From Tricharina praecox (lineage: Eukaryota): a stretch of 64,000 nt of DNA. Where the stretch lies: contig NW_026250407.1 in assembly GCF_024521635.1 (NCBI RefSeq), positions 1,488,001 through 1,552,000 of the forward strand. The letters are read 5' to 3'. The notes beneath the pieces are model-generated. The model saw only the letters and a program-made list of their open reading frames with translations. It was not told the origin of the DNA and did no database searches. Both the position numbers and the translations under genes were made by a program. How positions within the stretch are numbered: position 1 is the first letter of the stretch; each line of letters begins with the position of its first letter. Positions 1,471-61,100 of this stretch are shown in pieces.

Positions 1471-3051
1471 CCGCTCTCCTCACTGTCACGAAAAATGATC
1501 CGAGTGACCGGCTGTGCCCGAATATTCGACGAGCACTATTCGAACGTAGCTCGACCACAATGCGTGTAACTCCCTCAACGGCACGTTTCAATCGCCGCAG
1601 CCGTCTCTTTGGATCAATTCTAGATCTTTGAACTCCAGTGAATGGTAACTAACTGGGCTCGGTTTGCATCGGCTCGATAGATAAGCTTACACTACCGCGC
1701 GCACCGGCCGTAATCACCCGTGCGATAGATACGCCTCACGCGTGTATCCACCTGGCACCCACCAGGAACAACGCCGACGCGATCGCACGTGAGCCCTGGG
1801 GAAAAAAGGGCCGGCCCGAGGCGTGCTCTGTAGTTAAGTTAACTTTTTTTGGCACTCGTTCGTATGTAGCTTCGGTTATAACCGGCTGATCACCGTTCGA
1901 ACACGCTTAGGTGAGATGGCGCCAGATGGTTTGGCTAACGCGGTGGGTGGTTGTGCCGCGCCAGTAGATACGAGAGGGCATCGAAGTATTTGGGTCTGCT
2001 GTTTGCGACGATGTGCCAGTGTGGCACCGTCCGGCGAGGCCGCGTCGGAGGGTTTCTTTCGGGGAGCTCGAAGTCGATGTCGATGTCTCTGACTCTCTGA
2101 ATCTCTGACCGGCACCCAAGTACTATATCACTCTTGTTTTGTATATGCGGTTTCTACTGGTAAATTCCGTTAATTCCGAACACCTCGATCTTGGGATACA
2201 TACCGCTGCTATTCCAGAAAAAAGAACCCAAGGATTCTATATTCTAATCTAGGTGAGGCAAACCGGTAGTTAGACTCTAATCCCGATAGTCCCGAGTCAA
2301 CGACTTCACTTTAAGCATGCGGGATTGGACGTTCGTGAGGCTTGAGGTCGATCGAAGACTCACATGGATGTATGTATTGTACATGCCATTTCCAATCCGC
2401 GGCGCAACTTAAAGCCTCTGCCGGATAGCCGGATTTTAGCGAGTTCGCAGGGGGGTTTTTGCACGGCCATGCAGATGGCAGGTGGGGTAGGTGTGTATCT
2501 ATGTTGAGGATTGCTAAATCGACAACGGCGAATCACCGTCGAATAGGTATCGCCAGTCCATGGTCGGTCCTGCAAATTTCGAGAAGGAGGGAAAGAGCTG
2601 CTCGTTCCAGCTTCCTTCCTGCAGAACAAGCAAATATCATCCGTCCGAGAGAGCAGAATTCCCTGTCTTGGGATCTTCATGTCCGTCGAACCCCAGGCCA
2701 AGGCACTGGCATCATGTACTCGTATCGCGGTGGTGGTGGTGGTCCTTGCAGCTGGCCCATGCCAGTGATCATAGCTTGCGAGAAACTAACTACCGGGGCG
2801 CGCGCGCGCGGCCCGGGCATTAGTGTTTTTCCTCAAGTCAGTCAGAACTTACCGGCTCCTGCCCAGTGGCCCCCGCCCGCGCCGCAAAGGTATAATAAGC
2901 AGGCTTCTCCTCCGAGGTTGTTGGGTTTTGGGTTGGTTGGCTGCAGCACGCAACTTGAAGTTTAAGCTCCTCGCCACTATACGTTTGTTTCTGTCGTTTC
3001 GCCCGGAGAATTTGCCATCGACGGACGTGAATCGTTACGACGGGGAATACC

Positions 3052-5089
3052 ATGGAGAAATCGGAGTCGGACTTGGGCTCGTCGTACGCCGTGAGCGAAA
3101 AGGATGCCGAGTCTGCTAGGGAGAGCGCCGCACATCGGGATATTGCGCCTGGTCATCACCGCCGCGACGATGCTTCAGGCTACGACGAGGCCATCGTTAG
3201 AGTCACCAGTACTGAGCTCGACGATCCGGAAAAACTGGAGGCTTCGGCACACCTGGGACTGGGCGCATCGAGGACTGTGTCGACGACTAGGACGACAAAG
3301 GATCTTGCGGCAGTGATTGGTACATCGTTCGAAGTCAAGTGGAGCGAAGGGGATCCAGAAAATCCAATGAACTGGACACTGGCGAAGAGAGGATACATTC
3401 TGGTGGTGGTTTCGCTGCAGACATTGATTGTGTAAGTGGGCACCGAAGACATGGTACTTTTCACCGCTGATGTCCCGTGGCGATGCAGCATCTTCTACTC
3501 GACATCCTACGTATCCGGCGCGCCAGGAATGAGGGCGGAATTTGGGATCACGTCCGACACAACTATGATTCTTGGCATGACGACATATCTTCTCGGCCTT
3601 GCGAGCGGGCCGATGCTTCTGGCACCGCTTTCCGAGCTGTACGGCCGCCGGATCATATATCTCGTCTCACTGTTCCTCTACTTCCTCTTTGTGATTCCCA
3701 GCTGTGTGGCTACAAATTTCCACACCATTTTAATCGTCCGGTTTTTCGGCGCGGTTGCTGGTTCGGTCACAATTGCAAATGCTCCGGGGAGTCTGGGTGA
3801 TATCTTTCCGGAGGAATACCGGCCCCTCGCCTTCAGCGTGTTTTGGTATGTACTCATCCTACTCCATCCTCCATTGTGCCTACTCGTGGTGGAGTGTGCC
3901 GGGGAATGAATATGTCGCTAATCAACCTCTGGTCAAAAAGTTTAGGTACGACAGACAAGATCCTTCTCCAGATTACTCATTACTAAACGATTGTGAACAG
4001 CACCCATGAACGGCCCGGTTCTCGGCCCGATTATCGGCGGCTTCGTCTACCAAAACCTTGGCTGGCGCTGGAACAACTGGCTTGTCCTAATCGCTGCCGG
4101 TTTGTTTGGCCTGATGGGGTTCACCCACCCGGAGACGTATGCACCGGAGCTGCTCCGACGCCGCGCAGCAAAACTCCGCAAGGAGACCGGAGATGAGCGA
4201 TACATGTCGAGATTCTGCTTTAAGGACGGCGAGGGCGATCCCGCACATCTAATCAAGCTGAACCTGAAGCGGCCGGTGACCATGCTCGTCACCGAGCCGA
4301 TGTGCATCTTCTGGGCGCTCTACGTCGGCGCCATCTACGCCGTTCTGTACATGTGTTTCACCGCTGTTCGTACCCCCCACCCATATGTACCTTCCCGATC
4401 GCGGACGACTAACGCCTTGTGTAGTACCCCATAGTCTTCTCGGAGATCCGCGGGTGGGGTCCCGGCATCTCGGGCCTAGCCTTCACGGGAATGGGTCTGG
4501 GCACGATCCTCGCGGTGGTTTCCGAGCCGCTCAGCCGCAAGATCTACAACATGCACAGCATCGACCCGGACACGGGGAAGCGCCCACCGGAGGCGCGGAT
4601 CCTCGTCGTGGCCATCGCCGCAGTCATCATCCCCCTCGCCATGTTCTGGTTCGCGTGGACTTGCGTTCCCGTCAGCATTCACCCTGTCTGGCCTATCCTC
4701 AGCGGCGTACCTTACGGCCTCGGGAATACTTACGTCTTCCTGCACTCAAATAACTATCTCGTCACGAGCTACGATGTATACGCCGCCAGCGCAGTCGCCG
4801 GAAATGCAGTCGTTAGAAGCATCCTGGGCGGTATCATGCCGCTGTTTGCGCCCATCATGTATCGAAAAATGGGCCCGAATTGGTATTGCACTCCCCCTCC
4901 CCCCGGGCTACACTCCACCCATAGGAAGTAATGCTGATGGCGAAAAACAGGGCTGCCACCACCGTGGCCTTCATCGCTGTGGGATTGATCCCCATTCCGT
5001 GGGCCTTCTACAAGTGGGGCAAAACCATCCGGCTAAGAAGTCCGATACTGCAGAAGCTGCAGAGGGAGAGGGAGGAGAGGGGGGAGTAA
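3052..5089 (+). CDS. MFS transporter, drug:H+ antiporter DHA1 family (Tpo/Flu1-like), 5 exons
   Basis: Motifs W..GDPENPMNW, GPMLLAPLSELYGRR, GPVLGPIIGGF, PETYAP, PEARI, YAASAVAGN. Introns at about 3432-3488, 3846-4000, 4366-4424 and 4883-4950. Stop TAA 5087-5089. Confidence 0.92.
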
Positions 5090-5675
5090 GAAGACGCTGC
5101 ACCATATTACTGGAGTTTTTTTTTGGAGGCTATTTTTTCTGGATATGTATCATGTATGGCGGAAAGAAAGAAAAAAGTATCGGGCTTGGATGGGGGATTA
5201 ATATTAATGGGAGGAGAGTCTGGAGTCTGGAAATCTGGGAAACATGCACATATGTACTAGATATATGTACAGTTCGGGCCGTCCGTGCGAGCTTGACCCC
5301 GGCGTGCAAACCATATCGTATTTATATACTGGTGAGAGCTCAATACCCAGTTATATGTGGCCGACATGTGTCCGCGCCCGTGACAGACATTCGTCGGAAT
5401 CTCCTAGTTAGGCCAAACCACGCCCGCCCGTCCGTCCGTCCGTCCGTCCGGCCCCCAAGGCGTGGGGTACATACGCACCAGCGCCCAAACCCCGACGTTC
5501 TCGCAAGCAATCGCCGCCGCCAGCACTGCCTGACTATATACCTTATGGTACCGATACGGGTAACCTACATAGGTACCGAATTTTACCTAGGTACCGACGT
5601 TTACCCAGGTACCGACCGGAGCCGGCGCGATCACCCGGGTGTATCATACGACTCCCGAGTGACACCGGGACGCAG

Positions 5676-5842
5676 CGGAGGGTATCCGCCTGCCTTGACT
5701 ACCGGTACCCCGGCACCCTCCCGCCGCCCCGCCGCCCCCGTGGAAATGCCTAGATATCAGCCGCTGTTGATGTAGCTAGCGTAGTGCGGGGCACATCGCT
5801 CTAGTTAGCGGACGCCGGGCGGGAGATGGCGGAACTCTTCCG
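5676..5842. promoter_or_regulatory. Two CGG-N7-CCG putative Zn2Cys6 sites upstream of the GFA gene
   Basis: CGGAGGGTATCCG (5676-5688) and CGGAACTCTTCCG (5830-5842). The same motif recurs in the other cluster promoters. Confidence 0.65.
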
Positions 5843-6055
5843 CAGGCCACGCACGATCAACGGTGCAGTGAGATAGGGCCGGAGATGGGGATGGGGAGAT
5901 GGGGATGGGGATATGTGGATGGAGGTGGGGGATGGGGTGAGGTGGTGTGAGGATCGTATGGTGCAGCAGCAGTGTGGGGTATATCTACAAGACCTCGCCG
6001 CGCTGCACAGATCCCGCCCCACAGCTCTCCACCCAACCTGCGACTGTGAGGAAAG

Positions 6056-6575
6056 ATGTCCGACGCTACCACCACCGCCGCCACCGCCGCGCCGACAACG
6101 GGCACCTGCCTCTGCGGCGCGATCACGCTCACGATCCCTGCGGCCGCAGTGCCGCTCAAGAGCATGTCATGCTACTGCACCCACTGCGCGAAGAACGCGG
6201 GCGGGCCGTACCAGACGAACGCGATGTTCGCTACGACCGACATCTCCGTTTCCGATCCGCAGGGGCAGTTGCGGACGTACAGCATTTTGGACACGTTCTC
6301 TGGAAAGCCCAAGGAGAAGGCGTTCTGTGGGACCTGTGGCTGCACTTTCTATACCCGCCCTGGACACCATGAGGGGAAGATGACGGTAGTTAAGACGGGG
6401 ATTTTGGATGCTGGGTGAGTAAACCGCGAAGGGTTGTGAGGGATGTGCTGATGCGTCACATAGAGCGATCGCGAGTTTTCAGCCCAAGGTGGAGCTGTAC
6501 GCGCGAGATCGGCCGCAGTTTTGTCAGGCGCTGGAAGGGACGAAGCAGTTTGATACGATGCCGATGACCCATTAG
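6056..6575 (+). CDS. GFA/CENP-V (Mss4-like, DUF636) zinc-binding protein, 2 exons
   Basis: Signature GxCxCG (GTCLCG), CxCxxC (CYCTHC) and FCxxCG (FCGTCG). Intron GTGAGT 6415..TAG 6463. Exon 2 gives AIASFQPKVELYARDRPQF; stop TAG 6573-6575. Confidence 0.9.
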
Positions 6576-6774
6576 GAGGAGCAATCGAGATGGACTAGGA
6601 GGGACTACAAGGAGGGGAGTCTATGTACACAAAGAGGTATCTTCTGATAACCCAAAGAAAAAACGATCAAGCAAAAAGAGAACCCAAGGGTGTTCGCCAA
6701 AAATAAAACCCAATATTTCCCCTGCACCATTGCTGTCGCGGAAGGGAAAATCAAATGCGAGAATTAAAACAAGG

Positions 6775-9707
6775 TTAGGGAATTTGATCTGGAGTATTCC
6801 AGAGTGGATGCTCCATGAACCAATCAAAGTTGACATCGGCGCCCCACACCGCCCCCCGGTTGCTATTGAACAGCAACAGCGGATCATCGGGCGTGTCACC
6901 ACCTCCTTCGCAAGGGATTTCGGCTTCTCCATCGGCTTGTTCTCCGGCGTCTTGCTGACCTGAGACAGAACACGAGTTAGCTGGATGGATGGGATGCAGC
7001 ACGGTTGCATGTAGCTTACCTTCGTCGGAAGCGGAGATAATCTGGTCGTGAAACACTTCCAGTGTAGCCAAGCACCGCTTCGCTGATTCATACCCGTCTT
7101 CCAGGCTTCGAAGGATCGCAATGCACTTCTTCCATGACACCTCGAGGGAATCGTAATCAAGTTCGGTCTCCAGAGCAGGGCAGAGTTTTGCGGCGAGAAG
7201 TACGGTTGCTGCTGTATACAGATCTGCGGTGGACGTGTCAGTGCCATGGTCAGGTAGCAAAGATCTGGTTAGAATACGAACAGAAGATATAGTACCACCA
7301 GGCCGGCACTGCTCCGCTTAGTAGATTGTCGTCAATTAGGCTGATTGCTTCCTGTGCTGCTTCTACACAAGAAACGGAGCACTTCATTGCTAGTGAAGCC
7401 TCGAGCAACGATGTCGGGTGCAGCCGCTTGGATTTCTGGTCGTGATAGGCTTGTGAGTCCTGGACCAGATTGATGAGGATAGGTCGGAACAGCAAAATTC
7501 GGATGTTCAGGTATCTGCATCAAAGTGAGTTTTACAGCACAATGGGTCTGTGGCCGGGAGGTATAATCACCTGGCGTGTAAAACATTTGCTTGCCTAGTT
7601 TGGCAGGAATCCCGAATAATCGGTTCGGCCTCTGGATCCACAAAATGCAGGCGGAGAGCTGCTGGTAGCTCCAGCTGGAAATCAAGGAGCATCCGGTCCA
7701 ACCGGAGGAGTGACTGGTAGTAATCGTCGGGCCGCGGTTTCTCGTTCCGACTACCAGATGTATCATAAAATATTGACAGTATTTCACCGAGTATTTCGTA
7801 CAATTTGAGGGTATGGATGAAGAAGGTTGTCCGAGCATACACGCCCTCCGGTTGTTCACAGTACGCATTATCGTTGGTCAAGTATTCATCGTCAATCGCC
7901 ATAGGCAATGTGACTTGAGAACGGAGCGAAACCATGCTTGGCCGACCAAAAGTCATGCTAACTATACTATCGGAGAATTAGAAGGTTGGAATGAGGTTGT
8001 CTGGATACATGACTCGCCCTACTCACCGGTCGAGAAGAATACATCCATGCCATGCTCTTCTCCAGATCTCCCTCTCCACGTTGTTCTTCCTCTTCGCGCT
8101 GGTTGAGTCCAGATGCAATCCTAGCCCTTGTGCCACGCGGATCGCTAGCCCGGCAACATTCCAACATCGGTTCGGATACTTTGTCGACTGCAAAAACTGA
8201 CCCATGAGGAGCAACGCCTGCACGAGCTGAATAGACCCGCACCCTAGGATGTCGACATGCAGCAAAAGCCTAGATCTTTTGAAGAACACGTCCGCGGATG
8301 AATCACGCCGCGCCGGTGCGATATTTGACGAGAACTGACAGCCGAATGCGAAGACACAATTTAGGATACATCGGAACAACCTTCCCGGAGGCTTGCTTTC
8401 GTACGAACCAAATAGCGCGTCATCGTTCGAACCCGGGAAGGCTGAGTTTGTCCACAGCTGGTTGTAGGTCTGCATAAATGTAGGACGATGAAGATATGGG
8501 TATAGCGAATCGACCCATGTCCAGTAGCACTCAAGCAGGTGGTCGGCGATGCGTCGTGGCGGGAGGATAAAGTCTTCCAAGTCCTCCAGGAATCCATCGT
8601 CGTTCCTAGGTTTTCTTTCCCAGGCCGATTCAAAACCTGGCGCCGGAGTGCAAAAGCTAAGCTCCTCTGGTGACTTGGAACATGTTTTCTTCTTGTCAAC
8701 CGTCTGTTTGATTTGCTTCATGAAAGAGACCGCTGATGAGCTCCCGAAAAAACTCTCGTTCTCGTCTCCATCTACTCCATCTCCCCCGCTTGACGATGTC
8801 GCCCCCATCGCATCAGCTCGAGCTTTAGGTGGGAGACCAGCCGTAACGGAAAACCGTCGTTCCCGAGGTTCTTCAACTGTAACGTCCAGTTCCTTCGAGT
8901 GAGCAGGTGCGAATTCTGCACCTTCTGGTGTGCCACTATACAAGAGATGACTTCCAGGCTGGGGAATCGAAGCGCTAGGGAGGGGGCCAGTGTCCATTCT
9001 GTTCAGACCCATGTCTGCCCCAAGGGTGTAGTTCCGGGGCGGTTGTTGTTGGTTTAGTTGCGGTGGTATTGGATGCGGCATTGTGTCGTAGCGGTGGTAG
9101 CTGAGTGAGTGATTCTCAGTGTCGGTCGTCGCCTGGGGGAAAACGTTACGATTGCTCAAAACCTGCACTTCGTCCCGGACAATGAACGTACCATGTCCCC
9201 ATTATACGCCTCCATGACCGACACGTTCGGCTGCGCATGGCCAGCATTGCCTTCCAAAGACCGTATCCGCGCTTCCAGTTCCTCGATGTAACTACGTAAA
9301 TTCGCACCAGTCAACATTCGAGTTCCGCGTCCCGCCGTCGGATCGCAGACGAAATCAACCTCATTGCCCACATACCTTTGCGACACAGCCGGTCTATTCG
9401 GATCGTTCTGATACACACACTTCTCGGGGCTCCTTCCTTTGCGTGTACACGGGCCGCACGGTTTCGCGCCGTCGCACCTTGATTTCCGCTGGCGGCATTC
9501 GTCGCACGCCGTGGCCACCTTCCTCCGTTTCGGCCGCGGCTCGCTGCTCTGGCTATCGATTCCATCCGTAGTGTGCGACTGGCCGTGGGTTTCGGACGTT
9601 GCGCGTGGGCGTCGCGGATTCGAGCCGCCAGATGAGCCCGTCGTGGACGTGGGCGACGGTACTGTCGCTGGCTGCTGCGGGCCGTGTGCTGGCTCGGTGG
9701 AATTCAT
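6775..9707 (-). CDS. Zn(II)2Cys6 transcription factor with fungal-specific middle homology region, about 7 exons
   Basis: ACDECRQRKSRCDGAKPCGPC(X8)CVY binuclear cluster followed by the YIEELEARIRSLE coiled coil. MHR motifs YPYLHRPTF, GLAIRVAQGLGLH, RRAWHGCILLDR, FGRP. Acidic C-terminus. ATG at 9707. Confidence 0.93.
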
Positions 9708-11070
9708 AGCGAGGGCGTATTTCGACGGTGGTCGTGGTGTTGGTGGTGGTGGTAAGTAACAGGTGGTCGTACGCCGCCACGATGCCTGCACTTTGGTTCG
9801 GTGCAGGGAACATGGTCACGACAAGGCCATTGCAAAGGAAGGGAGGGAGGGACGGAGGAGATCTGGGTTATCTAAGTACTAAGCACGATGAGGTTTGGGG
9901 TGGGACGCTGGGTGGGTGCAGTGATTCGCAGGACTGTCCACTAGCCGGATGTTCGGCTAACCGCAATGACAAACCCCGCAACGCAACGGGCACCTCCAGC
10001 GCGGGAAGGAGGGTTGCAACAAACGGGGCATGTAAGCGAACGCTTGGATCGGAGAGGTCCGACGGCCCCATACGGACCTGCGGCACCAGGGACCGCGCGG
10101 ACTGGCATTCGGTTCGTGATCACTTTCCTTCATCTAGTCACCCCGATCAACTCCAGCATAACCCCGGCTGGGAGAGTCTCGCTTTGCCATGTATGCATCG
10201 GCCTTTAAGGGCCAACTCGGCCCCGCGGATTATTCAGCATATGCCGGCGCAAGTCGCCGACACTAGCAATAGAGTGGTCTCCACAACGTTATGGATCGCC
10301 CCGCGGCTGCTGGGGATCATCCTGGCCTCGGGAGGGAAAAGGAACCCTTGCGTTCGGGAGGCCAGTTGCCATACCATCTGCATACAAAACTGCAATCGAT
10401 CATAAGCTATTGCCGTATGTATGAAGTCACTTAAGAGGTAAATGTCTCAGTTCTGTTTTCCGTGCGCTTACAGATTATTACCCGAGCGGGAAGTAAGACA
10501 AACAGAAATATAGAGTTGTCTTTCGTATCAGAGGCCACGAGCCAGATATAGAAAGCCTACTTCCAAATATGGCAGTGGAGCTACACATCACCTCTTAATT
10601 GAGATACTACGGTAGGACAAATTTATTTTCCCGTTAAGTTTCTCCCGTACCGCATTGCTCAACCCCAACGATTATGAATACGAGCCAATTTCCTGTGGGA
10701 TCACTACATGGTACGCAGCTGCTGAGGTCACTCGGCCATAGTCCATAATTATCAAAGTGTGTTTGGGATTGAAACTATGGTACATAGAAGATGGCCATTT
10801 TGGTATAAAACGGGCCGACATATTTTGCCACCCATTCGTCATAAATTTATAATCGCACATAGTAAAGACCGTTAAGAATGTATATACATCAAGAAAAAAA
10901 GAAAACGTGGCGTCCAATCCCTCATCCCCTCTGCAAAACAGTGCCCTCATCCGTGGACATTACATACTTCCATGAAAAAGAGCCATCGCGAACATCATCA
11001 TCAGCATCATCATCGATCACCCCTCCCCAGCAAACCACCCAAACGAGGGAGAAACCCATGGGTTGTACGC

Positions 11071-12914
11071 CTACGGTGTGAACCTGAAAGCCGGGTGACC
11101 ATGGCCGAGACCAGCCACCTCCTCCTCGGTCTTTCCCTCGACGCGATGATCCCTGCGTCCCATATCACGTTGCTTATTCTCCCAGCGCAGGTAGAGTGTA
11201 GTAGTACAGCAAACAGCGAGAAGGATGACAGCAGCGGAAAGATTGATGATGTGGCCGGTCCTGTACGCAGGCGCCTCAGAGGGCAGGTAAGTCCAGGTGG
11301 CGACGAGACCTCCAGTGCTGCCCAAGCAGACGGCGAAGGCGCTGGCGATGGCGCGCACGGTGGGGCCGGCGGAGTTGTCGACTGTCCAGGCGATTATCAC
11401 GGGACTGGATGTGAACGCCCCCATTGTGACGAGGAACAGCGCGAAGTATTTGACCGCAATCATGTCGATGGTCAGGAGCAGGGCGAAGCCGATGACAATC
11501 GTGGGGCCCGACACAAGGCACAGGATCAGGCCGCGGGTCTTCAGGCGGTCCGAGAGGATGGCGCAGCAGACACAGACGATCGAACCGAGGAGGTAGGGGG
11601 GTACAGTCATGAGCTGGGACCGGATCGAGGTGAAGCCCATAGCCTTCAACAGGGACGGCTGTGGCGGAATGTTAGCTGGTGACCGCCGGGGGGCTATTCA
11701 GGGTGACAAACCATGAAGAGAGCAACCGAGTTCATGCAAAGCAGACCGCAGAAAAGTCCAACGGACATCAACCAGGTGTTGATGTTGAGGATCGATTTTT
11801 TGAAGTGGAACTTCTGCATCTTCTCCTTGGAACCGGTCAGAGTCTCGAGGTAGATCCTCCGCACGGCGAGCTGACGCTCTTCATCGGTCAAGAATTTGGC
11901 GGATCCTGGTGAGTCGGGGAGGACGAGGTAGCAGATGGCCGCGGCGACGATCGTGAGCAACCCCTCGAAGAAGAAAATATTACGCCACGAATGGACCATT
12001 CCCCACTGGGGAATTTGCGAGAAACCAGTAGCAAGAAGACCTGTTGCGGAGTAGAATTTAGCCAGGTAAATGGAGAAGTTCGAATCGGTTGAAGTTATGT
12101 ACCTCCGAATCCTCCAGCTACACTTGCAACGGATGCATAGATACCGACTCTAGTGACCAGCTCATGACGACGGTAGCTGCGTGAGTGTCAGAAAATGATA
12201 CCTAGAGCCCTTACGGGAGGAGGGAGCTCACAAGGTTGAAAGAGTGTAGGTGATTCCAGGCATGATTCCAGCTTCCGCGATTCCGAGGACCACTCTGGCA
12301 ACAACGAGGCCAGTGTGCGAGGTGGTGAAGCTGATGCAAAGGGTGATGAGGCCAAATCCGAAGGTGATCAAGGACAGCCAGATCTTTGGACCGAATTTCT
12401 TGCAAAGGACATTGGCCGGTCTGCAAACTGTCAGCATTGCCGTCCGTCACCAATTAGATGGATGGATTGGATGCTTACACTTCAAACAGGACGTAAGTAA
12501 TGAAGAAACCGGTGAGAGCAACATTGAAGTCGAATCCTTCAAGCTTCAGGTCCTACGGGGGCACGCATGTCAGCCTACTAACTCTTGATGACTGACACCC
12601 AGTGGATGAATGGTTATTACCTCTTCCATGCCCATGATTTTGGCGTTTCCCATGTTGCTCCTGGTAATTCATCAGCTACCGCCAGCCTGGATTGAGCTCA
12701 CCGGGAAGACGACTCACCGGTCGATGAAGGCCATCAAGTAGATTAGGGTCACGCATGGCAAGATCCACTTATCGAACTTCCTCCGGAGCTTCGCCTCCAA
12801 TTCGTGGTCCAGGGAGGCAAGCTCAGCCTGGAGGTCTTGAGCGTCCAGCGATCGGAGCTTTGTGTTCATGCCATTTTCGATGTGCATGGTTTCGTTTTGT
12901 TCTTTTCCCTCCAT
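11071..12914 (-). CDS. MFS permease, anion:cation symporter (Dal5/Tna1-like) family, about 7 exons
   Basis: KLRRKFDKWILP..YLMAFIDRSNMGNAKI, LGIAEAGIMPG, YRRHEL, WRNIFFFEGLLT, LPDSPGSAKFLTDEER, QLMTVPPY, and C-terminal WENKQRD..LGHGHPAFRFTP. Confidence 0.93.
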
Positions 12915-13272
12915 GATTGCTGAGGCGTTGGACACTGGAAATATTTGGTCTCGGGAAGCTCTTATATGCCATCCCAATCCCAATGCCGAGGCGGCTACTG
13001 CAAGCTGGACCAAAGGTACCCATCACACTCTCTCTCCCCAGGTGAGTTATCCAGGGCAATTACCCCCGGCTATCTCCCGCAAGCTGGGGCCGCAGCGAGG
13101 CGTCCTGGTAAGCCAGTTGACATTTGAATCCCAAGGCTCAAACCCGATAATCCCAAAGCATCTGTTGAACTCGCCCGCTTAATTGAGACCTGGGGAAACA
13201 GGGGGGTGGGGGCTGGGTTAACCTGTTTACGGCTTGGCAACGCCTTTTTTCTTCCCAACTCATAGGCGGGTG

Positions 13273-13318
13273 CGGAGCACTTCCGGGGCACTTAGCAATC
13301 TACCACGGAGCGGACCCG
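13273..13318. promoter_or_regulatory. Two CGG-N7-CCG putative Zn2Cys6 sites upstream of the permease
   Basis: CGGAGCACTTCCG (13273-13285) and CGGAGCGGACCCG (13306-13318), about 360-400 bp before the ATG at 12914. Confidence 0.65.
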
Positions 13319-15207
13319 TGGAAAGGATTTTTTCTTGTCCTCCATTGACCCGCATGTGTGCTGAAGCGCGTCTATCCAATCGAATCGCTTGAGTAATCTT
13401 CAAAGTTCAGCCTTTGGGGCTGCGGTACCGAGTGAAGCATGATGTCGAACTGCGGGCAAAGCCTATGATAGAAGGTGAGACGGTGTCTATCCCATAGCTC
13501 TGGGTCAGGCAAATCTGATTGTGCAGCCTCCCCCGCGTTGGTTTCAGAACCCTCGGCTCTTTCTACCACTTGCTGCTTGCCGCATAAGCGGAAGCGACCT
13601 CGAACTTCCGCGTTGTATCATTGCCGCGGTCATAACTGCCTTCCGCCTCGAGCTCAATCATCAATGCAGATTCCCGGCGGGCCCAAATTGCCAAGCTGTT
13701 GGAAAAGCGCAACAAAGCCCCCGAATTCCAATAGAATGTTCTCAGCCACCTCGCCATCAGCAAAAGCAAATGTATGTTGCTTGCCCAGTCGAGCACGCGA
13801 GCTCGGCCATCTGGGCGAGGAGGCAGCCGGAGCAGTTCCGGACTCGTGGTCTGGATGCACCCAGCAAATGGACTAGTTTCCGCCTCCTCCTCCTCCAAGT
13901 CTGCATCTGCGTCACCGTATCACCGTATCACCAGTATGATGTATCCTCGTACGCACACTCCCAACTCATAATTCGTGGAACAAATCGGTTCCAGGTGAGA
14001 GGATCTGCCTTGCCTTGCATACGTGTAACTGTAGATATGTATGTTCTCCACAGAATATCCATCTACACTTCCAAGCATCGCCGGAAAGTAGGTATCACAC
14101 GAAGATTACCACCTCCAAAGGTCGAATACCAAATTATTCCCAGCGCAGCTTCAGACAACACTCTAATTTACCCCATCCCAGGCTACGCGTGTTCTACATA
14201 CAGGTATGTACATACCCGAGTCTTTACTCGTTACTCGTATTATCATACCTGCAAACCGTGCACACCGTGCACTGGGATCCGACACCGGTAGTTAGTTGGA
14301 CTATGCTACCCCGGCCAACCCCGCGCCCCCCACAAAAATGCGGGGAAGACTAGCGCCGAACCCCGGATGAGCCTCCCCCCGTCTCATCTACCATTCCAGT
14401 CATGAGTGGCCCGCCACGGAAGAAATATTGAAAATCCGGACAACTAAATCGGTTCTGCATTGTGGAGTATGGTCAGCTCCTGTGTACGGTAGGTAGTACG
14501 GTAGTGTATGTACGCTCGGTGTCTGCACTGCTCTCGATTCGATTCCGTATATGCACCCTCCACAGGAGTTCGGAGCAATGAGGAGGCGAGGAGGATGAAT
14601 GGGCTTTGCGGTGCATTGTCCGGTCGAAATGTGATTTAATTGGCGTGTGACCAGAGAAATTATGAAATTCGATTAGTTAGCAAGGCAATCCTAAGCTCAC
14701 TCCGTAAGAACTCCACATGAGTAACCAGTCGGTTTTCCGTAGCCAGGCAAATTGCATTCAAGACGTCGAGCTGTAAGGTTTTGATATCTATTACAACTAA
14801 CTACGGTCACAGAACCGTGAACACACGGCTTCCCGTCCGCTCAGCCCTAGTTAAGCATGGTATCGCCAGGTTAATACTGCAGTGGGTGACCATGCGGGAA
14901 TCCCTGGTACCGTAATTTTTGTTTTGCCTTTGCATCGAAGAGCAAAAGTTTGATTTTTGATACTCCATCTGTCTATAAAGAAGGCGGAACGATTTCTTTC
15001 CTTTGAGTTTCAGAGAGAAAAGTATTTTCATGCATCTGTCCATCGATATAAACATAGAAACCGTTTTACGGAATATAGACACACTCCCGTAAATGATCAG
15101 GAGTTCATGAAATTGCTGAAATATCCACAAAGAAGCAAAGCAGCCCGAAATTCAAAGCCATATCTACATCCACACACGCCAGTGGTCCAACCCGGCTAAC
15201 CCCACCA

Positions 15208-16803
15208 TCAAAACTTCAGAATCAAGTCGAGTTGTGTGTTGGCCTGTGCAAAGTTACTCCGTCAGCGATCCTCGATCCGAGGAAGGGGAAGAGAGGGGGA
15301 GGAAGAGAGGGTGGGGGCATACATGAGCGATAGCATCGTGACCAAACAGCCACGGCTGAAACTCAGGATCCGACCATCGGTTGGGGTTTGACTTGACCAG
15401 CTTCTGCTGCTTAAGTTGCGCGGCAACCCTATCCTCATCTGTGGCACCCATCTCCATCTTCATATCGGCATCGCGGGCCAGCTGCTCCGGGCCATCGGGC
15501 ATGTGCCAGATGTCACCGTTCTCCATCGAGCCCTTTTGGATCTTTTCGCAGCGCGGCTTCCGGATCGTCTGGAAGGCGGCAAGAACCGCGGGGAGGTCAC
15601 TGCTATCCCGTGCGCGCGAAATGCATTCCGCCAATGACGCACCGTCTTCGATTGCTTGTCCCGCGCCCTGTGGGGTGTTAGAAGCTGACTGGGCATCGTG
15701 GGGCTGGGGATGGGGGTGGGGGTGCAAACCTGAGCGAGGTAGGGCACCATAGCGTGTGCGGCATCTCCGATCAATACCACTCTTCCGGATTTGCTCACCC
15801 ACCGCGGCAGGACGGGGAGGTCCGCCAGCGTCCACTTAAGACAATACTCGACCTTCTCGAGAACCTTGCAGATAACCGGATCCCATCCTTTGTACTGTGC
15901 CTTCATCTCGTCGAGGTTCCCCGGCTCGTTCCACTTTCCTACTGCCGCCTTGCCCGGATGCGACATGACGAGATTGTACAGCTTACCCTCCTGGATGGGG
16001 TAGGCCATGATGTGCCGGCGGTAACCAATCCAGCAGTTGGAGGAGGCTTCATCCATCAGGTGCCGGACTTCGGGGTCGGCGCGCATGATCTCTCCGGGGA
16101 CGGTGGCACGGTAGGCGCAGTTGGTGGTGGTCCGGGGTTCGACGGTTTCCTCGGTGACGACGGCGCACTCGCGGACGCGGGAGCGGATACCTATCTACGG
16201 AGTTATTACAGCCCCAGAATATAAAGGAAGAATTGGATGTTCGCTGACCATCGGCTCCGATAATTACGTCTGCTTTTAGGACGGTTCCATCGTGGAGCGT
16301 CACAGTGACATTTTCCTGATCGACGTCCTGGACGTAGGCTCCGAGTGTTATTGTGGCTCCCTCGGCGAGAGCAGCATCGTGGAGCATCCGCTGGTAGTCA
16401 GCTCGGTGAATGAGCCAGTAGCTGTACCTCCCGTCAGCCAAACAACTTTCGAAGACCCAGCTGCACGATCTACTCACGGATATCCATAAGTCTTCGTCAT
16501 CTTAGGATCCAGTGGCGTAACGCCGATCACATCACCATCCTGGTACCGCCTCATGTTGATGTTCTTCGGCCACACAACTTTCTTGAGCAGCTGCTCCTTC
16601 AACCCCCAGCTCTGCAGCAGCCGGCTGCTATTCGGCGGGATCTGAATACCAGCTCCAACCTCCTTGAGCTCCGAGGCGCCCTCAAGCACGTGGACGGCAT
16701 GGCCTTTCTTCCGCAGGGCGACGGCAGTCGCAAGACCTCCGAGGCCAGCACCGACGATGATGATGCTGAAAGGAGCTTTTTTGGCGGCGTCACTGCTAGG
16801 CAT
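15208..16803 (-). CDS. Group A FAD-dependent aromatic hydroxylase (salicylate hydroxylase / 3-hydroxybenzoate 6-hydroxylase-like), 5 exons
   Basis: IIIVGAGLGGL Rossmann motif, EVGAGIQIPPNS, IHRADY, IIGADG, VVLIGDAAHAMVPYLAQGAGQAIEDG. Last exon ANTQLDLILKF*, stop at 15208-15210. Confidence 0.93.
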
Positions 16804-17433
16804 TTTGGCTGTGATTGATCGTACGGGGAAAGGAAAGGATGTCTTGTTTCTGAGAGCTGTTAGTGACGACGAAGGAAAGGATGCGTGTATTTAAGCCATC
16901 ACATAATAGCTTCGACATCTCGCAGGAGACCGAAGTTCCTGTCGCCTGCAGTGGCAGAACTCCGCTGCCTGTCCCAGAGCGCCGGAGCACTCCCGTATCA
17001 AGTCTGTGAGCCTGGTTGGCGAGATGTCAAGACAGTCCAGCGTTTCTTAGTCGCGTGTTCTGCATAGCGGGATTCCGGAATTGGGATGTTCAGATGGGCT
17101 GTCAACTTCAATGATCACGCTTTGATGGATAGTGCGAAACTGTGGGGCGCATAGCGGTGCTGGGGATAGTGGGGTAGGGATATACATAGCTCGGATCGTT
17201 CCGCTTCGTAGCTGGAGGCCGGCCTAACCGTGTAGCTCCCCACAAGCTGGCGGAAACAACGCCATGGAGAAACCTCCAGACAAGAAGGATGTGATAATAA
17301 ATATACTCACGCCGACTCAAGCTTTACTTTCTTTTTTCACTTTGCTTACTCTTTTCCCCCCAAGTAACTCCGAACCTGGTCGATCAGCTCTCCTCACTCG
17401 CATAGCAAACCTCACTGACTCGAATATTTCACC
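16804..17433. promoter_or_regulatory. Divergent promoter of the hydroxylase and dioxygenase genes
   Basis: 630 bp between head-to-head ATGs. Contains CGGAGCACTCCCG (16983-16995), near-match TGGCAGAACTCCG (16952-16964), CGGATCGTTCCG (17192-17203), several SYGGRG (CreA-like) hexamers, and TATA-like AT runs near 16889 and 17296. Confidence 0.65.
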
Positions 17434-18581
17434 ATGACCAACGTCGACGCCGAAAAGATCGCAAAGGTATGTCTCGGGCCGTCTCGAGACATTCGAGTGG
17501 TTACTAACTAGCACTTAATAGTGCGAGAAATTCATCACCGAGACACTCCCACCGCACAATGTCTCCCCGCTTTGGACTGTGATGGACGCGGTAGTCCCAC
17601 CGTTTCCAAACCCGAAGGCGGTCCCGCATCTTTGGAGTTACAAAGAGCTGCGACCAATCCTCCTCGAAGCTGGCGAGTTGGTAGCAGCAGAGGAAGCCGA
17701 ACGGCGAGTGTTGATGCTCATCAACCCCGTGTTGAGTGTGTTCCCACGCCCTCATACTCATATAGTATTGCTAACCACTCCCCCCCCCCCAGAGGCGCCG
17801 AATACAACCGACACCCTCTATGCGGGGTTGCAGCTAATCCTGCCCGGCGAGACGGCACCCGCACACCGGCACGTAGCATTCGCACTGCGGTTTATCATCG
17901 AGGGAGAGCGAGGGTTTACAGCGATCGACGGAAAGAAGATCAATATGGAGCGCGGCGATGTGATTTTGACGCCGAAGTGGACGTATCACGATCACGGACA
18001 CGACGGGACCGGTCCGATGATCTGGCTGGATGGGCTTGATCTCCCCGTGTATCAGTTCTTGCCCGTCAATTTTGCCCAGGGATACTCGGAGTCGCGGTAT
18101 CCGAGCGAGTATGCTCCCCTTATTCTCTCCCCCCTCGAAAGAGAGAACTAGCTGATGAATGAATGAAAGGCCGGTCGAAACCTCGCCCTCGAAATACCCC
18201 TGGGCCCCTGTCCAGGCCGCTCTCGACTCGCAGTCCGGCCCATACGCGAAATTTACCTACCAAGGTGGCTTCGCCGGCGGACACGTGTCGCAGATCATCG
18301 GAGCCCACGCAGAGCGCGTCGATGCGGGAACACAGTCGCCGCCCCGCCAGGAATCCAGCTCGTTCGTGTTCCATGTTTACCAAGGCAATGGATACACTCT
18401 GGTCGGCGAAGGAGAGCAGCAGAAGAAGCTGGTGTGGACGCAGTCGGATGTCTTCGCGGTGCCTCATTGGAGGAAGATCGTGCATGTCGTCGGTGAGGGA
18501 GAGACGGCGTATTTGTTTAGTTTTTCGGATACCCCGATGTTGAGTAATTTGGGGAGCTGGAGGGAAAATAAGTTTGAGTAG
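17434..18581 (+). CDS. Gentisate 1,2-dioxygenase-like bicupin ring-cleaving dioxygenase, 4 exons
   Basis: PLW..PFPNPKAVPHLWSY, EEAERRVLMLINP, TTDTLYAGLQLILPGETAPAHRH, GDVILTPKWTYHDHGH, WLDGLDLP, DVFAVPHW, YLFSFSDTP. The HxH...H iron ligands are present. Introns at about 17467-17521, 17736-17792 and 18109-18169. Confidence 0.93.
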
Positions 18582-19193
18582 GGTGCTTTTGGATAGTCTT
18601 TTAGGGTTTTTTTTGTATTTGGATTTGGGGTCTTGTTTTGATAACTATTCAACGAGAAATATGATTGAAGTTTAATTCAAGCTGTGCTGTGTGCTGCGGA
18701 TACTGATCTCACGATGTATTTTCCTCTGTTTTTGGCCAAGAATAGTACTGAGTGGCCAACATCCGTGTACCATGCCTCTGGATGAGACACAATGACGCGA
18801 ATTACCTTAATGCCGAAGAGTTCCACTCCACTCCACTTACTCTCGAACCTCTCAAACTACAAGTCCCATAGTGATCACCTCATCGCCAGCCAGTTTCCAG
18901 AGAAACCCATTCCATCCGTCACGTCATCATAGCTACCGTAGTATCCGCAAGCTAAACCCTCACTGCCGGCCTGCGTCCCGCGCCCACAGAAACGCGCTAT
19001 CTCTTCCTCCGTCGATGGATGAATCGCAATCCAGGATGATCCTCCGCGAACGATTCTCCGCGAAACTCCGCGAAAAAAAAACGTGGGGCAAGCTCATCGC
19101 TCCCCGCATGATCATAATTCCCCGCACTGCGCACCGCGCGCCGGATAGTTAGCCTTATCCTGGTCCCTGCATTCCGCACCACCCCCCCTGTCA

Positions 19194-19231
19194 CGGAACC
19201 ATTCCGCTGTCGCTTGGCCGGAGATGAGCCG
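19194..19231. promoter_or_regulatory. Two CGG-N7-CCG putative Zn2Cys6 sites upstream of the FAH-family gene
   Basis: CGGAACCATTCCG (19194-19206) and CGGAGATGAGCCG (19219-19231). Confidence 0.65.
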
Positions 19232-19474: not shown

Positions 19475-20411
19475 ATGGTAACCTGGACGCGCCTCATCCG
19501 CTTCGTCAGCGCCACCGACGGAAAGACCTACAACGGAGAGCCCATCGTCAACGGCGCTGAGGTCGACGTAGCGAAGCTTTTCAAAGCTGGCTCGCTCCAG
19601 GCACGCATCATCACGGGCGACGATATATTTTCCGATGATGCGAAGATCGCCGACGAGGCTGTTGATGTGAAGGAACTCCTCGGCCCCCTCACCGAGGAGC
19701 AGGTTCCGATCATCAGATGTGTCGGATTGAACTACATGAAGCACAGTGAGTCCTCCGCCTGCCGCCAGAAGAGAGAACCTAGCCTAACAATGAACAGTCC
19801 AGGAAGCCGGCCGCACACCACCGCCGTACCCCAGCATCTTCATCAAGCCGTCGACGTCCGTCGGCGGCTGGGGCGAAGAAATTCCAATCCCGAAGCTCGC
19901 ACAGGACGACCAATGCGACTACGAAGGCGAGTTGACCATCGTGATCGGCAAAGACGGCAAAAACATCCCCGAGGACCGCGTGCATGAGTACATCGCCGGC
20001 TATGTCACCAGCAACGACGTGTCGGCGCGCAAGTGGCAGCGCGAGAAGGCGTATGCCGGCGGCGTCCCGCAGTTCTGCTTCTCCAAGGGATTCGATAAAT
20101 ACGCGCCCCTCGGGCCCGCTATCGTCGCCGGCCCTACCGTCGGCGACGCCGGTGAACTCCGCTTGACTACCAAGGTCAATGGTGAACTCAGGCAGGATAC
20201 CAATACCAACGATCTCATCTTCAACATCCCGCGGATTATTGCGTTCATCTCGCAGGGAACCACACTGAAGAAGGGCAGTCTGATCATGACTGGTACCCCG
20301 AGTGGTGTGGGAATGGGCATGAGCCCGCCGCAGTATCTGAAGGATGGGGACGTTGTCGAGATCGAGATTGAGAAGCTGGGCACTTTGTATAATACCATCA
20401 AGTTCGAGTAG
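19475..20411 (+). CDS. Fumarylacetoacetate hydrolase family protein (fumarylpyruvate/acylpyruvate hydrolase-like), 2 exons
   Basis: WTRLIRF, IRCVGLNYMKH, PSIFIKP, DYEGELTIVIGK, NDVSARKWQ, FSKGFDKYAPLGP, IMTGTPSGVG. Intron at about 19746-19797. Confidence 0.93.
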
Positions 20412-21059: not shown

Positions 21060-21905
21060 GAGCAGTGAGGCACCAAGAAGTGAATGAGGCTTGCAGGAGT
21101 GAATGAGTATCGGAAGATTGATTGAGCCTCGAAGGAGTGAATGACGCTCGAAGGAGTGATTGAGGCTCGCAAGACTGAGTGACGCTCGGAGGAGTGAATG
21201 AGTCTCGAAGGAGTGAGAATGAGTGAATGAGCCTCGGAAGATTGAATGGGACTCGTAGGAGTGAGTGACACTCGGAGGAGTGAATGAGACTCGCAAGAGT
21301 GAATGAAGCTCGACAGAGCGAATGGAGTGGATGAGTCTCGGAAGAGTGAATGAGCCTCGCAGGTATGAATGAGTCTCAAAGAAGTGAATGAGCCTCGAAG
21401 AAGTGAATGAGACTCGCAAGAGTGAGAAAGAGTGATTGAGTCTCAAAGGAGTGAATGAGAATGAATGGGTCTCGGAAGAGTGAATGAGCCTCGATGAAGT
21501 GAATGAAGCTTGCAGGTGTGAGAAGGAGTGATTGAGGCTCGAAAGGGTGAATGAAGCTCGGAGGAGTGAATGAGACCCGACAGACTGAATGGAGTAAATG
21601 AGTCTTGAAGAAGTGAATGAGTCTTGGAAGAGTGAGTGAGCCTCGGAGGAGTGAATGAGTCTTGCGAGACTGAATGAAGCTCGGGGTGAGTGGGAAGAGG
21701 TGAACGAAGCTCGAAAGAGTGAATGAGTCTCGAAGGTGTGAAAGAGGCTCGAAGGGTTAATGAGTCTCGATGAAGTGAATGAGCCTCGCAGGACTGAATG
21801 AGTCTCGAAGAAGCGAGTGAGGATGAATGAAGCTCGAAGGAGTGATTGAGGGTCGGAGGAGTGAATGAAGCTCGGAGGAGTGAATGAAGCTCGGAGAAGT
21901 GAATA
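21060..21905. repeat. Degenerate 19-bp minisatellite (about 40-45 units), consensus GAGTGAATGAGYCTCGAAG
   Basis: Consecutive units such as gagtgaatgacgctcgaag / gagtgattgaggctcgcaa / gactgagtgacgctcggag / gagtgaatgagtctcgaag, with occasional 8-10 bp partial units. Confidence 0.9.
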
Positions 21906-58161: not shown

Positions 58162-61100
58162 ATGCTACTCAAGAGTCCAGCTCTGCTGGCAATGGCCTTT
58201 TTGGCTGTTGCCGACGGCTTCCCTCGGTATGTCCCACTTCCATCTACTATTTTATTCTTCAGCCCTATTCAGAGTAGTGGTCTCTTGCCACCCCCTCGTA
58301 CAATATTTTTTAGCTTCGTCCTTACTGTTTTCGATTCCCATTCGCATCATTTTTCATGATGCATACTCTGCTTGGCCAGTGACCGCACTACTGTCTAATA
58401 CGCTGCTGTCTTCATTTTTTTGCACTCTTGTCATCGTATCCTTTACCGAGACTGTGCTGATATTTTTATTCAGGATTAGGCCCGGCGGTGCAGGCTTTCC
58501 TAAGGTCACCACTACCGTCACCGAGACTTTCACGTCGGTTTACGTCGTAACTTGTGCTCCGACTCTTGGTGGCTACTGGGACTTCAAGCTTCCAGGCGTC
58601 AAGCCCGCGAAGAGAGACGTCAAAGACGACGATGATCCCATCTCTTGGCCTCGGTGAGTTTTTACTTGACTACTTGAGTTGAAAGCAACAATCACTTACG
58701 AGTGATAATGTAGTACTCTTACGGTCACCAAGACGAAATCCACGACGATCACCGAGTCCCTCTCTCGGAGTTGCCCTATCACGGATGGACCTACCGAGAC
58801 GCCGACTCCCACGTTGACTCCGTCCGACACCGTTGAGCCCTCCGAGACTGCTACTCCCTCCGAGACCGCGACCCCCTCCGAGACTGCTACTCCCTCCGAG
58901 ACGGTTGAGCCTTCCGCGACTGCTACTCCCTCCGAGACTGCTACTCCCTCCGAGACTGCTACTCCCTCCGAGACCGCGACCCCCTCCGAGACGGTTGAGC
59001 CTTCCGAGACTGCTACTCCCTCCGAGACTGCTACTCCCTCCGAGACGGTTGAGCCTTCCGAGACTGCTACTCCCTCCGAGACTGCTACTCCCTCCGAGAC
59101 TGCTACTCCCTCCGAGACCGCGACCCCCTCCGAGACGGTTGAGCCTTCCGAGACTGCTACTCCCTCCGAGACTGCTACTCCCTCCGAGACTGTTGAGCCT
59201 TCCGCGACTGCTACTCCCTCCGAGACTGCGACCCCTTCCGAGACGGTTGAGCCTTCCGCGACTGTGACCCCCTCCGAGACGATTGAGCCTTCCGAGACTG
59301 CTACTCCCTCCGAGACCGCGACCCCCTCCGAGACTGTTGAGCCTTCCGAGACTGCTACTCCCTCTGAGACTGTTGAGCCTTCCGAGACTGCTACTCCCTC
59401 CGAGACTGTTGAGCCTTCCGCGACTGCTACTCCCTCCGAGACGGTTGAGCCTTCCGCGACTGCGACCCCCTCCGAGACTGCTACTCCCTCCGAGACGGTT
59501 GAGCCTTCCGCGACTGCGACCCCCTCCGAGACTGCTACTCCCTCCGAGACTGCTACTCCCTCCGAGACTGCGACCCCTTCCGAGACGGTTGAGCCTTCCG
59601 CGACTGTGACCCCCTCCGAGACGGTTGAGCCTTCCGCGACTGCTACTCCCTCCGAGACTGTTGAGCCTTCCGAGACTGCTACTCCCTCCGAGACTGTTGA
59701 GCCTTCCGCGACTGCTACTCCTTCCGAGACGGTTGAGCCTTCCGAGACTGCTACTCCCTCCGAGACGGTTGAGCCTTCCGAGACTGCTACTCCCTCCGCG
59801 ACTGTGACCCCCTCCGAGACGATTGAGCCTTCCGAGACGGCTACTCCCTCCGAGACCGCGACCCCCTCCGAGACTGTTGAGCCTTCCGAGACTGCTACTC
59901 CCTCTGAGACTGTTGAGCCTTCCGAGACTGCTACTCCCTCCGAGACTGTTGAGCCTTCCGAGACTGCTACTCCCTCCGAGACTGTTGAGCCTTCCGAGAC
60001 TGCTACTCCCTCCAAGACTGTTGAGCCTTCCGCGACTGTGACCCCCTCCGAGACGATTGAGCCTTCCGCGACTGCTACTCCCTCCGAGACTGCGACCCCC
60101 TCCGAGACTGCTACTCCCTCCGAGACTGCGACCCCCTCCGAGACTGTTGAGCCTTCCGAGACTGCGACCCCCTCCGAGACTGCTACTCCCTCCGAGACTG
60201 CGACCCCCTCCGAGACGGTTGAGCCTTCCGCGACTGCTACTCCCTCCGAGACTGTTGAGCCTTCCGAGACTGCTACTCCCTCCGAGACTGTTGAGCCTTC
60301 CGAGACTGCTACTCCCTCCGAGACGGTTGAGCCTTCCGAGACTGCTACTCCCTCCGAGACGGTTGAGCCTTCCGAGACTGCGACCCCCTCCGAGACGGTT
60401 GAGCCTTCCGCGACTGTGACCCCCTCCGAGACGATTGAGCCTTCCGCGACTGCTACTCCCTCCGAGACTGCGACCCCCTCCGAGACTGTTGAGCCTTCCG
60501 CGACTGCAACTCCCTCCGAGACTGCTACTCCCTCCGAGACCGCGACCCCCTCCGAGACTGCGACCCCTTCCGAGACGGTTGAGCCTTCCGCGACTGTGGC
60601 CCCCTCCGAGACGGTTGAGCCTTCCGCGACTGCTACTCCCTCCGAGACTGTTGAGCCTTCCGAGACTGCTACTCCCTCCGAGACTGCTACTCCCTCCGAG
60701 ACGGTTGAGCCTTCCGAGACTGCGACCCCCTCCGAGACGGTTGAGCCTTCCGCGACTGTGACCCCCTCCGAGACGATTGAGCCTTCCGCGACTGCTACTC
60801 CCTCCGAGACTGCGACCCCCTCCGAGACTGTTGAGCCTTCCGCGACTGCAACTCCCTCCGAGACTGCTACTCCCTCTGAGACTGCTACTCCCTCTGAGAC
60901 TGCGACCCCTTCCGAGACGGTTGAGCCTTCCGCGACTGTGAGTCCCTCCGAGACTGTTGAGCCTTCCGCGACTGCTACTCCCTCCGAGACTGCGACCCCC
61001 TCCGAGACGGTTGAGCCTTCCGCGACTGCTACTCCCTCCGAGACTGCGACCCCCTCCGAGACGGTTGAGCCTTCCGCGACTGCTACTCCCTCCGAGACTG

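Follow-up and report, generated by a model that had tools for sequence, protein, structure and literature searches.

The window analysed here is a 64,000-nucleotide stretch of contig NW_026250407.1 (positions 1,488,001 to 1,552,000) of Tricharina praecox, a post-fire fungus. It holds a six-gene cluster of the gentisate type in whose promoters we find a recurrent inverted repeat, CGGA-N6-CCG, with its two CGG triplets 7 bp apart (CGG-N7-CCG, or N7; other spacers are named likewise). Open spliced models were obtained for all six genes, and families were assigned with Pfam. A GFA-family gene (6056..6575, plus strand; 156 aa, one intron; PF04828, E 1e-20), the putative counterpart of yeast GFA1, converges on a Zn2Cys6 transcription factor (TF) gene (6775..9707, minus strand; 851 aa, six introns; PF00172 and PF04082), the probable counterpart of Candida parapsilosis Gtf1p. 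These are followed by a major facilitator superfamily (MFS) permease (11071..12914, minus strand; 496 aa) and by a flavin adenine dinucleotide (FAD) monooxygenase resembling Mnx2p (15243..16803, minus strand; PF01494), for which 15243 is the end of the last intron and a short last exon lies beyond. Divergent from the monooxygenase are a gentisate 1,2-dioxygenase-like cupin (17434..18581, plus strand; 324 aa; Cupin_2, E 4e-15) and then a fumarylacetoacetate (FAA)-hydrolase-family gene (FAH; 19475..20411, plus strand; 294 aa; PF01557, E 1e-62).

The permease, dioxygenase, hydrolase and GFA protein were matched at the level of family to HBT1, GDX1, FPH1 and GFA1 of the C. parapsilosis pathway. 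The monooxygenase, a probable 3-hydroxybenzoate 6-hydroxylase, shares 56% identity with C. parapsilosis CPAR2_704320 (MNX2) over 423 columns, and all 435 residues of its model are identical to those of a protein recorded under the name Tricharina praecox. Once Pyronemataceae are set aside, its nearest named relatives belong to Mucorales (73-75% over one exon), which agrees with the transfer to Mucorales that PMC5144973 proposes. The dioxygenase has no second match in the genome, with the label gentisate-like resting on its cluster context, and the FAA-hydrolase-family protein is a probable fumarylpyruvate hydrolase. The permease is defined by its model and by an MFS_1 match (E 5e-5) that is confined to the last exon and falls below the curated cut-off, and its best segment reaches 71% against its counterpart in L001, a syntenic cluster described below; it probably serves hydroxybenzoate uptake, the position of HBT1 in the pathway, as a family-level assignment. 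The GFA protein is a candidate glutathione-dependent maleylpyruvate isomerase.

Contigs from two probable RNA runs, X3 and X4, skip predicted introns of the GFA, TF (6/6), permease, monooxygenase and FAH genes; no run is recorded as RNA. Among the joints listed there is one intron joint for the permease and none for the dioxygenase, so that five of the six genes have one. The GFA gene and the convergent TF gene share one spliced contig (5936-9800) in X3 and again in X4, an arrangement suggestive of overlap at their 3' ends, although a contig cannot show that they form a single transcript. On the minus strand, a frame of 87 codons (9550-9813) starts at an out-of-frame ATG at 9813, overlaps the TF start at 9707 and is possibly an upstream open reading frame of the TF, if the transcript reaches that far.

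Seven 13-mers of the form CGGA-N6-CCG, four of them ending in TCCG, lie 180-451 bp from an ATG (distances run from site to ATG, and for minus-strand genes to the near edge of the site). Two precede the GFA gene, CGGAGGGTATCCG at 5676..5688 and CGGAACTCTTCCG at 5830..5842 (380 and 226 bp before the ATG), together with a weaker CGG-N7-CCG lacking the A/T flank at 5711..5723 (345 bp). Before the permease stands the pair CGGAGCACTTCCG (13273) and CGGAGCGGACCCG (13306), spanning 13273..13318 at 359 and 392 bp, with a weaker CGG-N7-CCG at 13067..13079 (153 bp) and a distal site, CGGAGCAGTTCCG, at 13828..13840 (914 bp). The divergent monooxygenase/dioxygenase region contains the near-match TGGCAGAACTCCG (16952) and the site CGGAGCACTCCCG (16983) within 16952..16995, at 149 and 180 bp from the monooxygenase ATG; the same 16983 site is 451 bp from the dioxygenase ATG, which has in addition an N6 variant, CGGATCGTTCCG, at 17192..17203 (242 bp). 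The FAH gene has the pair CGGAACCATTCCG (19194) and CGGAGATGAGCCG (19219), spanning 19194..19231 at 281 and 256 bp. N7 sites are thus present in 4/4 catabolic promoter regions, as a first-pass annotation of this DNA had claimed, and the TF region has none at N7 and one N6 variant, CGGAGAGGTCCG (10050..10061, 343 bp before the ATG). Over the five promoter regions the spacing is sharp, with seven sites at N7, two at N6 and none at N5 or N8-N11.

That annotation had read the letters of the seven 13-mers, the near-match and the two N6 variants correctly and had placed the sites at about 180-450 bp from an ATG, which agrees with our measurements; its list omitted the 13828 site and the weaker matches at 5711 and 13067. 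Its description of the sites as mostly paired holds in that three of the four catabolic regions have two, the two GFA sites being 154 bp apart and hardly a pair. In one contig of DNA run X1, position 16955 is A instead of C, and the near-match becomes TGGAAGAACTCCG, nearer the consensus. Among 40 of 55 strain differences listed for X1 and X2, none falls in the seven sites, at a divergence too low for this to count.

Enrichment was measured against 60 stretches (600 kb) from two contigs of the genome, of which 271 kb were classed as non-coding by a hexamer model with 89% accuracy for known exons and a 21% error rate in intergenic DNA. The five promoter regions comprise 100-600 bp upstream of the GFA, TF, permease and FAH genes and the whole divergent region (2,630 bp). 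We find seven CGGA-N6-CCG sites in this set against 0.29 expected from the non-coding-like background (p=3e-8). In a de novo ranking of 1,344 inverted 3-mer dyads the top one is CGG-N7-CCG (9 vs 0.7; Bonferroni 8e-5), and among 5,376 4-mer dyads CGGA-N5-TCCG leads (4 vs 0.06; Bonferroni 0.003). No dinucleotide shuffle of the promoters (0/5,000) reaches seven sites, even when the best of 20 spacers is taken. Over the whole window there are 8 CGGA-N5-TCCG against 1.67 in shuffles, with 0/100 shuffles reaching 8. Every catabolic promoter region has a site (4/4) and three have two (3/4), compared with 30/480 and 2/480 of half-overlapping non-coding 500-bp windows, and 2 of the 31 close-pair matches in the genome fall inside this 14-kb cluster. 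CGGA half-sites are in excess (38 vs 20.2 expected) because the dyads account for the surplus, the 21 that lie outside dyads being at background level. We judge the element to be a real cis-element.

A second dyad, CTG-N6-CAG, also passes correction (0.009), with six in the window promoters; it was rejected as a motif, the L001 promoters having none. CreA/Mig1-type SYGGRG occurs 7-8 times per promoter region as a raw count. No unlinked regulon members were accepted, since the 15 stretches with paired or look-alike sites are mostly coding or beside unrelated genes.

The related cluster L001 has all six genes in the order and orientation of the window cluster, with 118 bp of DNA available upstream of its GFA gene. 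Its promoters have diverged to the point that pairwise alignments are near saturation, with only the FAH and monooxygenase-side sites in register, and distances from the ATG were therefore compared instead. Sites stand before every L001 gene: one N6 before GFA, an N7 before the TF, two N8 before the permease, two N7 and one N6 in the divergent region, and an N8 and an N7 before FAH. The FAH sites lie at 284 (N8) and 255 (N7) bp, against 281 and 256 bp here, and the monooxygenase N7 pair at 155 and 179 bp, against 149 and 180 bp; the permease N8 pair (316/337 vs 359/392 bp) and the dioxygenase N6 site (CGGAGTGTTCCG at 179 vs 242 bp) are less alike. Among the 3-mer dyads of L001, CGG-N7-CCG once more ranks highest (5 vs 0.61), without significance after correction. 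The observation that no N7 site precedes the TF is therefore true of the window cluster and not general.

One dioxygenase exon used as a query returned 80 loci, 48 of them judged fungal by GC content and intron-like spans; removal of 7 near-duplicates and 10 with too little upstream DNA left 31 loci (30.7 kb). Across these, CGGA...TCCG is enriched at N8 (11 vs 0.5) and N7 (4 vs 0.5), with 0/200 shuffles reaching either count, is absent at N9, and occurs three times each at N3 and N13, counts matched by 1 and 2 of 200 shuffles. Conservation in related clusters, a check that the first-pass annotation had named, is divided: L001 keeps the sites, and strict N7/N8 sites occur in 8 of the 31 loci. 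L039, a GFA-containing cluster, has CGG dyads at N10 and N11 in its promoters, either a further spacer class or chance. A copy of the 19194 site lies in L159 (G000:C1:3187001-3197000) near FAD monooxygenase, inositol monophosphatase-family and Fungal_trans genes, possibly another small cluster.

The embedded TF is the best match in the genome for Gtf1p (CPAR2_704370; E 5.6e-45, next 3.6e-29), one of 45 matches among its Zn2Cys6/Fungal_trans genes, and is 31% identical to it over 786 columns. Its own best hits are in Sphaerosporella, Pyronema and Trichophaea, and the cluster of Gtf1p is also among its hits. In a 54-row tree, one of two made as quick searches only, the Pyronemataceae and yeast Gtf1 clades are joined (Shimodaira-Hasegawa-like approximate likelihood ratio support, 89). 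The Zn2Cys6 domain and linker are followed by a heptad-like segment, YIEELEARIRSLE, as read from the sequence, and a search of the PDB with the DNA-binding domain, which lies at about residues 55-130, gave weak Hap1, Leu3 and Cep3 matches only. Between the sixth cysteine and the tyrosine of the coiled coil, the linker has 14 residues both here and in Gtf1p, as against 13 in L001, Pyronema and Trichophaea. The loop between C5 and C6 is longer here (9 residues) than in Gtf1p (6). Spacer length is therefore not in simple step with linker length.

The system best suited for comparison is the 3-hydroxybenzoate cluster of C. parapsilosis, where MNX2, HBT1, GDX1, FPH1, GFA1 and GTF1 are induced 267- to 3,061-fold on 3-hydroxybenzoate, GFA1 by 267-fold, and where a gtf1 mutant fails to grow on 3-hydroxybenzoate or gentisate and expresses the cluster at a much lower level (PMC8929692). 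The sequence GGAN7TCC precedes all of the yeast cluster genes but GTF1, and a probe containing it is shifted in an electrophoretic mobility shift assay (EMSA) by wild-type and not by mutant extract, cell extracts rather than purified protein having been used; the MNX2 probe, CGGAAGGCTATTCCG, is CGG-N9-CCG, and the flanking C and G of the yeast site are taken from that probe alone (PMC8929692). Both systems have the same six gene types, an Mnx2p-type monooxygenase and an inverted GGA...TCC element before each non-TF gene, with CGGA half-sites in the MNX2 probe of the yeast; the TF here is the best match of Gtf1p in this genome. They differ in spacer (N9 in the yeast probe, N7 and N6 here), in gene order, in the residues of a linker of equal length, in the C5-C6 loop and in lineage, a yeast as against a pezizomycete.

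Sites, enrichment, gene content and the retention of like sites in L001 are observed here; the yeast work supplies the evidence that expression depends on the factor and that it binds inverted GGA...TCC. From that system we infer binding of these sites by the embedded TF, the inducer, each enzyme reaction and the function of the N6 variants. A dimer of the Gtf1p counterpart would contact each inverted CGG(A) half-site through one of its zinc clusters, preferring 7 bp between triplets in T. praecox and probably tolerating 6. A hydroxybenzoate such as 3-hydroxybenzoate or gentisate would act as inducer, and the permease, hydroxylase, dioxygenase, GFA protein and hydrolase would be activated together, taking the substrate through uptake, hydroxylation to gentisate, ring cleavage, isomerisation of maleylpyruvate to fumarylpyruvate by the GFA protein, and hydrolysis to fumarate and pyruvate. 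We consider it most likely that the embedded factor binds in this way and co-activates the whole pathway, the sites serving as the upstream activating elements through which a fungal gentisate regulon is switched on. The proposal that this is the binding site of the embedded TF has thus gained comparative support (the Gtf1p match, the yeast regulon, retention in L001), with binding itself argued from the yeast system.

Several results weigh against this interpretation. The literal Gtf1p motif, GGA-N7-TCC, is absent from the five promoter regions (GGA-N5-TCC occurs four times) despite the equal 14-residue linker, so the element would have to be a variant that works like the Gtf1p element. The two trees disagree, the sister grouping of Pyronemataceae and yeast Gtf1 being unrecovered in a 23-row tree. 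No strict N7/N8 site is found in 23 of the 31 related loci, many of them short, including L012 and L039, which have FAH, GFA and dioxygenase genes and a 36-42% TF; L030 and L032 have N7/N8 sites though their TFs fall in another clade. Nor is the motif exclusive to promoters: the window has 19 CGGA-N6-CCG places, the 12 beyond the seven including several within coding DNA, and the genome has 933 CGGA-N5-TCCG in 38.4 Mb, most without evident link to the pathway. Finally, contigs of X3 and X4 reveal an intron in the 5' leader of the monooxygenase (16850..16902, minus strand; joint 16849/16903, CT..AC), and the spliced leader spans 16955 and 17009, not 17161. It therefore contains the 16952 and 16983 sites, which are not upstream for that transcript. 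The leader-containing transcript may be a long basal isoform, or the dioxygenase may be the gene that the two sites serve; transcript starts are not visible in contigs. This leader intron has a CTAAC branch site, and an AT-rich element at about 16886-16895, common to L001, sits inside it and would fit a second, shorter monooxygenase transcript.

The sites could be functional and yet be read by an unlinked Zn2Cys6 factor, such as a wider aromatic-compound or carbon regulator or the closest paralog of the TF, on contig C15 (the C15 paralog), acting by itself or in a heterodimer with the cluster factor. The genome is rich in such genes, as the 45 Gtf1p matches attest, the spacer is unlike that of Gtf1p, the TFs of L030 and L032 share the clade of the C15 paralog, and the yeast EMSA used cell extracts (PMC8929692). 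We nevertheless regard an unlinked reader as unlikely, as the other close pairs of the genome are mostly coding or beside unrelated genes in the 15 stretches inspected, no site cluster precedes the C15 paralog or the single RPE65-family gene, and Gtf1p is genetically required for the homologous yeast cluster (PMC8929692). Chance, a pattern chosen post hoc from GC-rich promoters, draws on their GC content of 0.51-0.62, on the 6% of non-coding 500-bp windows that have one site, and on CTG-N6-CAG, which passes correction and is missing from L001; the promoter shuffles, the independent enrichment in related loci and the matching positions in L001 largely refute it, and we give it very little weight.

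A different question is whether the 7-bp spacing matters at all, or is incidental to a factor that acts through the density of CGG half-sites. Yeast zinc cluster factors are described as having a half-site mode free of spacing rules (PMC10250231), the five promoter regions hold an excess of CGG/CCG triplets (134 vs 80), and such a mode would explain the mixture of N6, N7 and N8 in L001 and other mixed spacers in relatives. Against this stand the sharp spacing within the species and the background level of CGGA outside dyads, which make it quite improbable. Dimeric binding to spaced half-sites by the embedded factor thus remains the interpretation that we prefer.

Gal4 recognises triplets at N11 and Put3 at N10. 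With these factors and Ppr1 the embedded TF shares a Zn2Cys6 domain, a linker and a coiled-coil-like segment, and its proposed sites share inverted CGG triplets and one dominant spacer within a species; the difference is that two N6 sites stand beside the seven N7 sites here and that L001 mixes N6-N8. Gal4 loses more than 500-fold in affinity on a 1-bp change of spacer, and Ppr1 (N6) is spacer-sensitive too (PMC10250231). Related zinc cluster proteins of Candida albicans, Lys14, Lys142, Lys143 and Lys144, prefer different half-site spacings (PMC4066398); these are paralogs that divide targets, whereas here probable orthologs with the same targets differ in spacer between lineages.

Gentisate clusters described in Pezizomycotina combine a hydroxylase, gentisate dioxygenase, fumarylpyruvate hydrolase, C6 factor and MFS transporter (PMC3914699, PMC7842363, PMC13094099), clustered likewise here. 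The GC (stilbene) cluster of Greene et al. has a linked stilbene dioxygenase, which the window cluster lacks, the sole RPE65-family (PF03055) gene found in the genome being on contig C34, not C50. The window cluster has a GFA gene, and if GFA is the isomerase, clusters termed gentisate-like lack one. We found no motif described for a filamentous-fungal gentisate cluster in the literature searched, mostly outside subscription papers, and no match to CGGN7CCG; in the available parts of PMC7842363, PMC3914699 and PMC8283699 there is no occurrence of CGG, and 'gentis' was not found in PMC8579045.

Adjoining the GFA gene, a second MFS transporter (3051-5090, plus strand) has no CGGA dyad upstream and one weak CGG-N7-CCG at 2526, and is probably outside the regulon. 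Between the permease promoter and the monooxygenase end lie about 2 kb (13400-15240; 1.2 kb in L001) in which no gene was recognised and which contain the 13828 site and a repeated element at about 14870-14930 that X1 and X2 cover to very high depth. The right border of the cluster, before a Utp7/BING4 gene, is a degenerate tandem array of GAGTGAATGA-type repeats with strong GC skew (21100-21900). Further along, a 1,048-codon open frame without a Pfam match (58709-61855, plus strand) contains a periodic repeat, from which some 25 CGG-N9-CCG matches arise, spaced by multiples of 18 bp.

That a cluster TF binds dyads in the promoters of its own cluster, GFA included, is already published for C. 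parapsilosis, and there GFA1 is proposed, as a hypothesis, to be the maleylpyruvate isomerase (PMC8929692, PMC5144973). The link between the GFA gene and the pathway made in the first-pass annotation is therefore supported and not new, GFA1 being part of the induced yeast cluster (PMC8929692). What is new is the N7 spacer here and the series of spacers from 6 to 9 across the family; on the difference from the yeast site and on variation among relatives, the earlier annotation was silent.

These findings give the gentisate regulon of one filamentous ascomycete a specific element that can be tested, and extend to a fungus other than a yeast the argument from co-regulation that GFA is the missing maleylpyruvate isomerase. 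Less expected is that probable orthologs with linkers of equal length appear to have sites differing by 2 bp, and that a close relative mixes three spacers, which makes the evolution of spacing in a small regulon testable. We suggest tentatively, with rather more doubt than conviction, that Gtf1-family activators keep their CGGA half-site and target pathway while the spacer that they favour drifts from lineage to lineage and linker length does not change to match, from 9 in C. parapsilosis to 8 in several filamentous ascomycete loci, 7 here and a mixture of 6-8 in L001. If so, the family would be a natural series in which the spacing preferred by a Zn2Cys6 dimer changes together with that of every site in its regulon, by way of a permissive intermediate, in contrast with the strict spacing of Gal4 and Ppr1.

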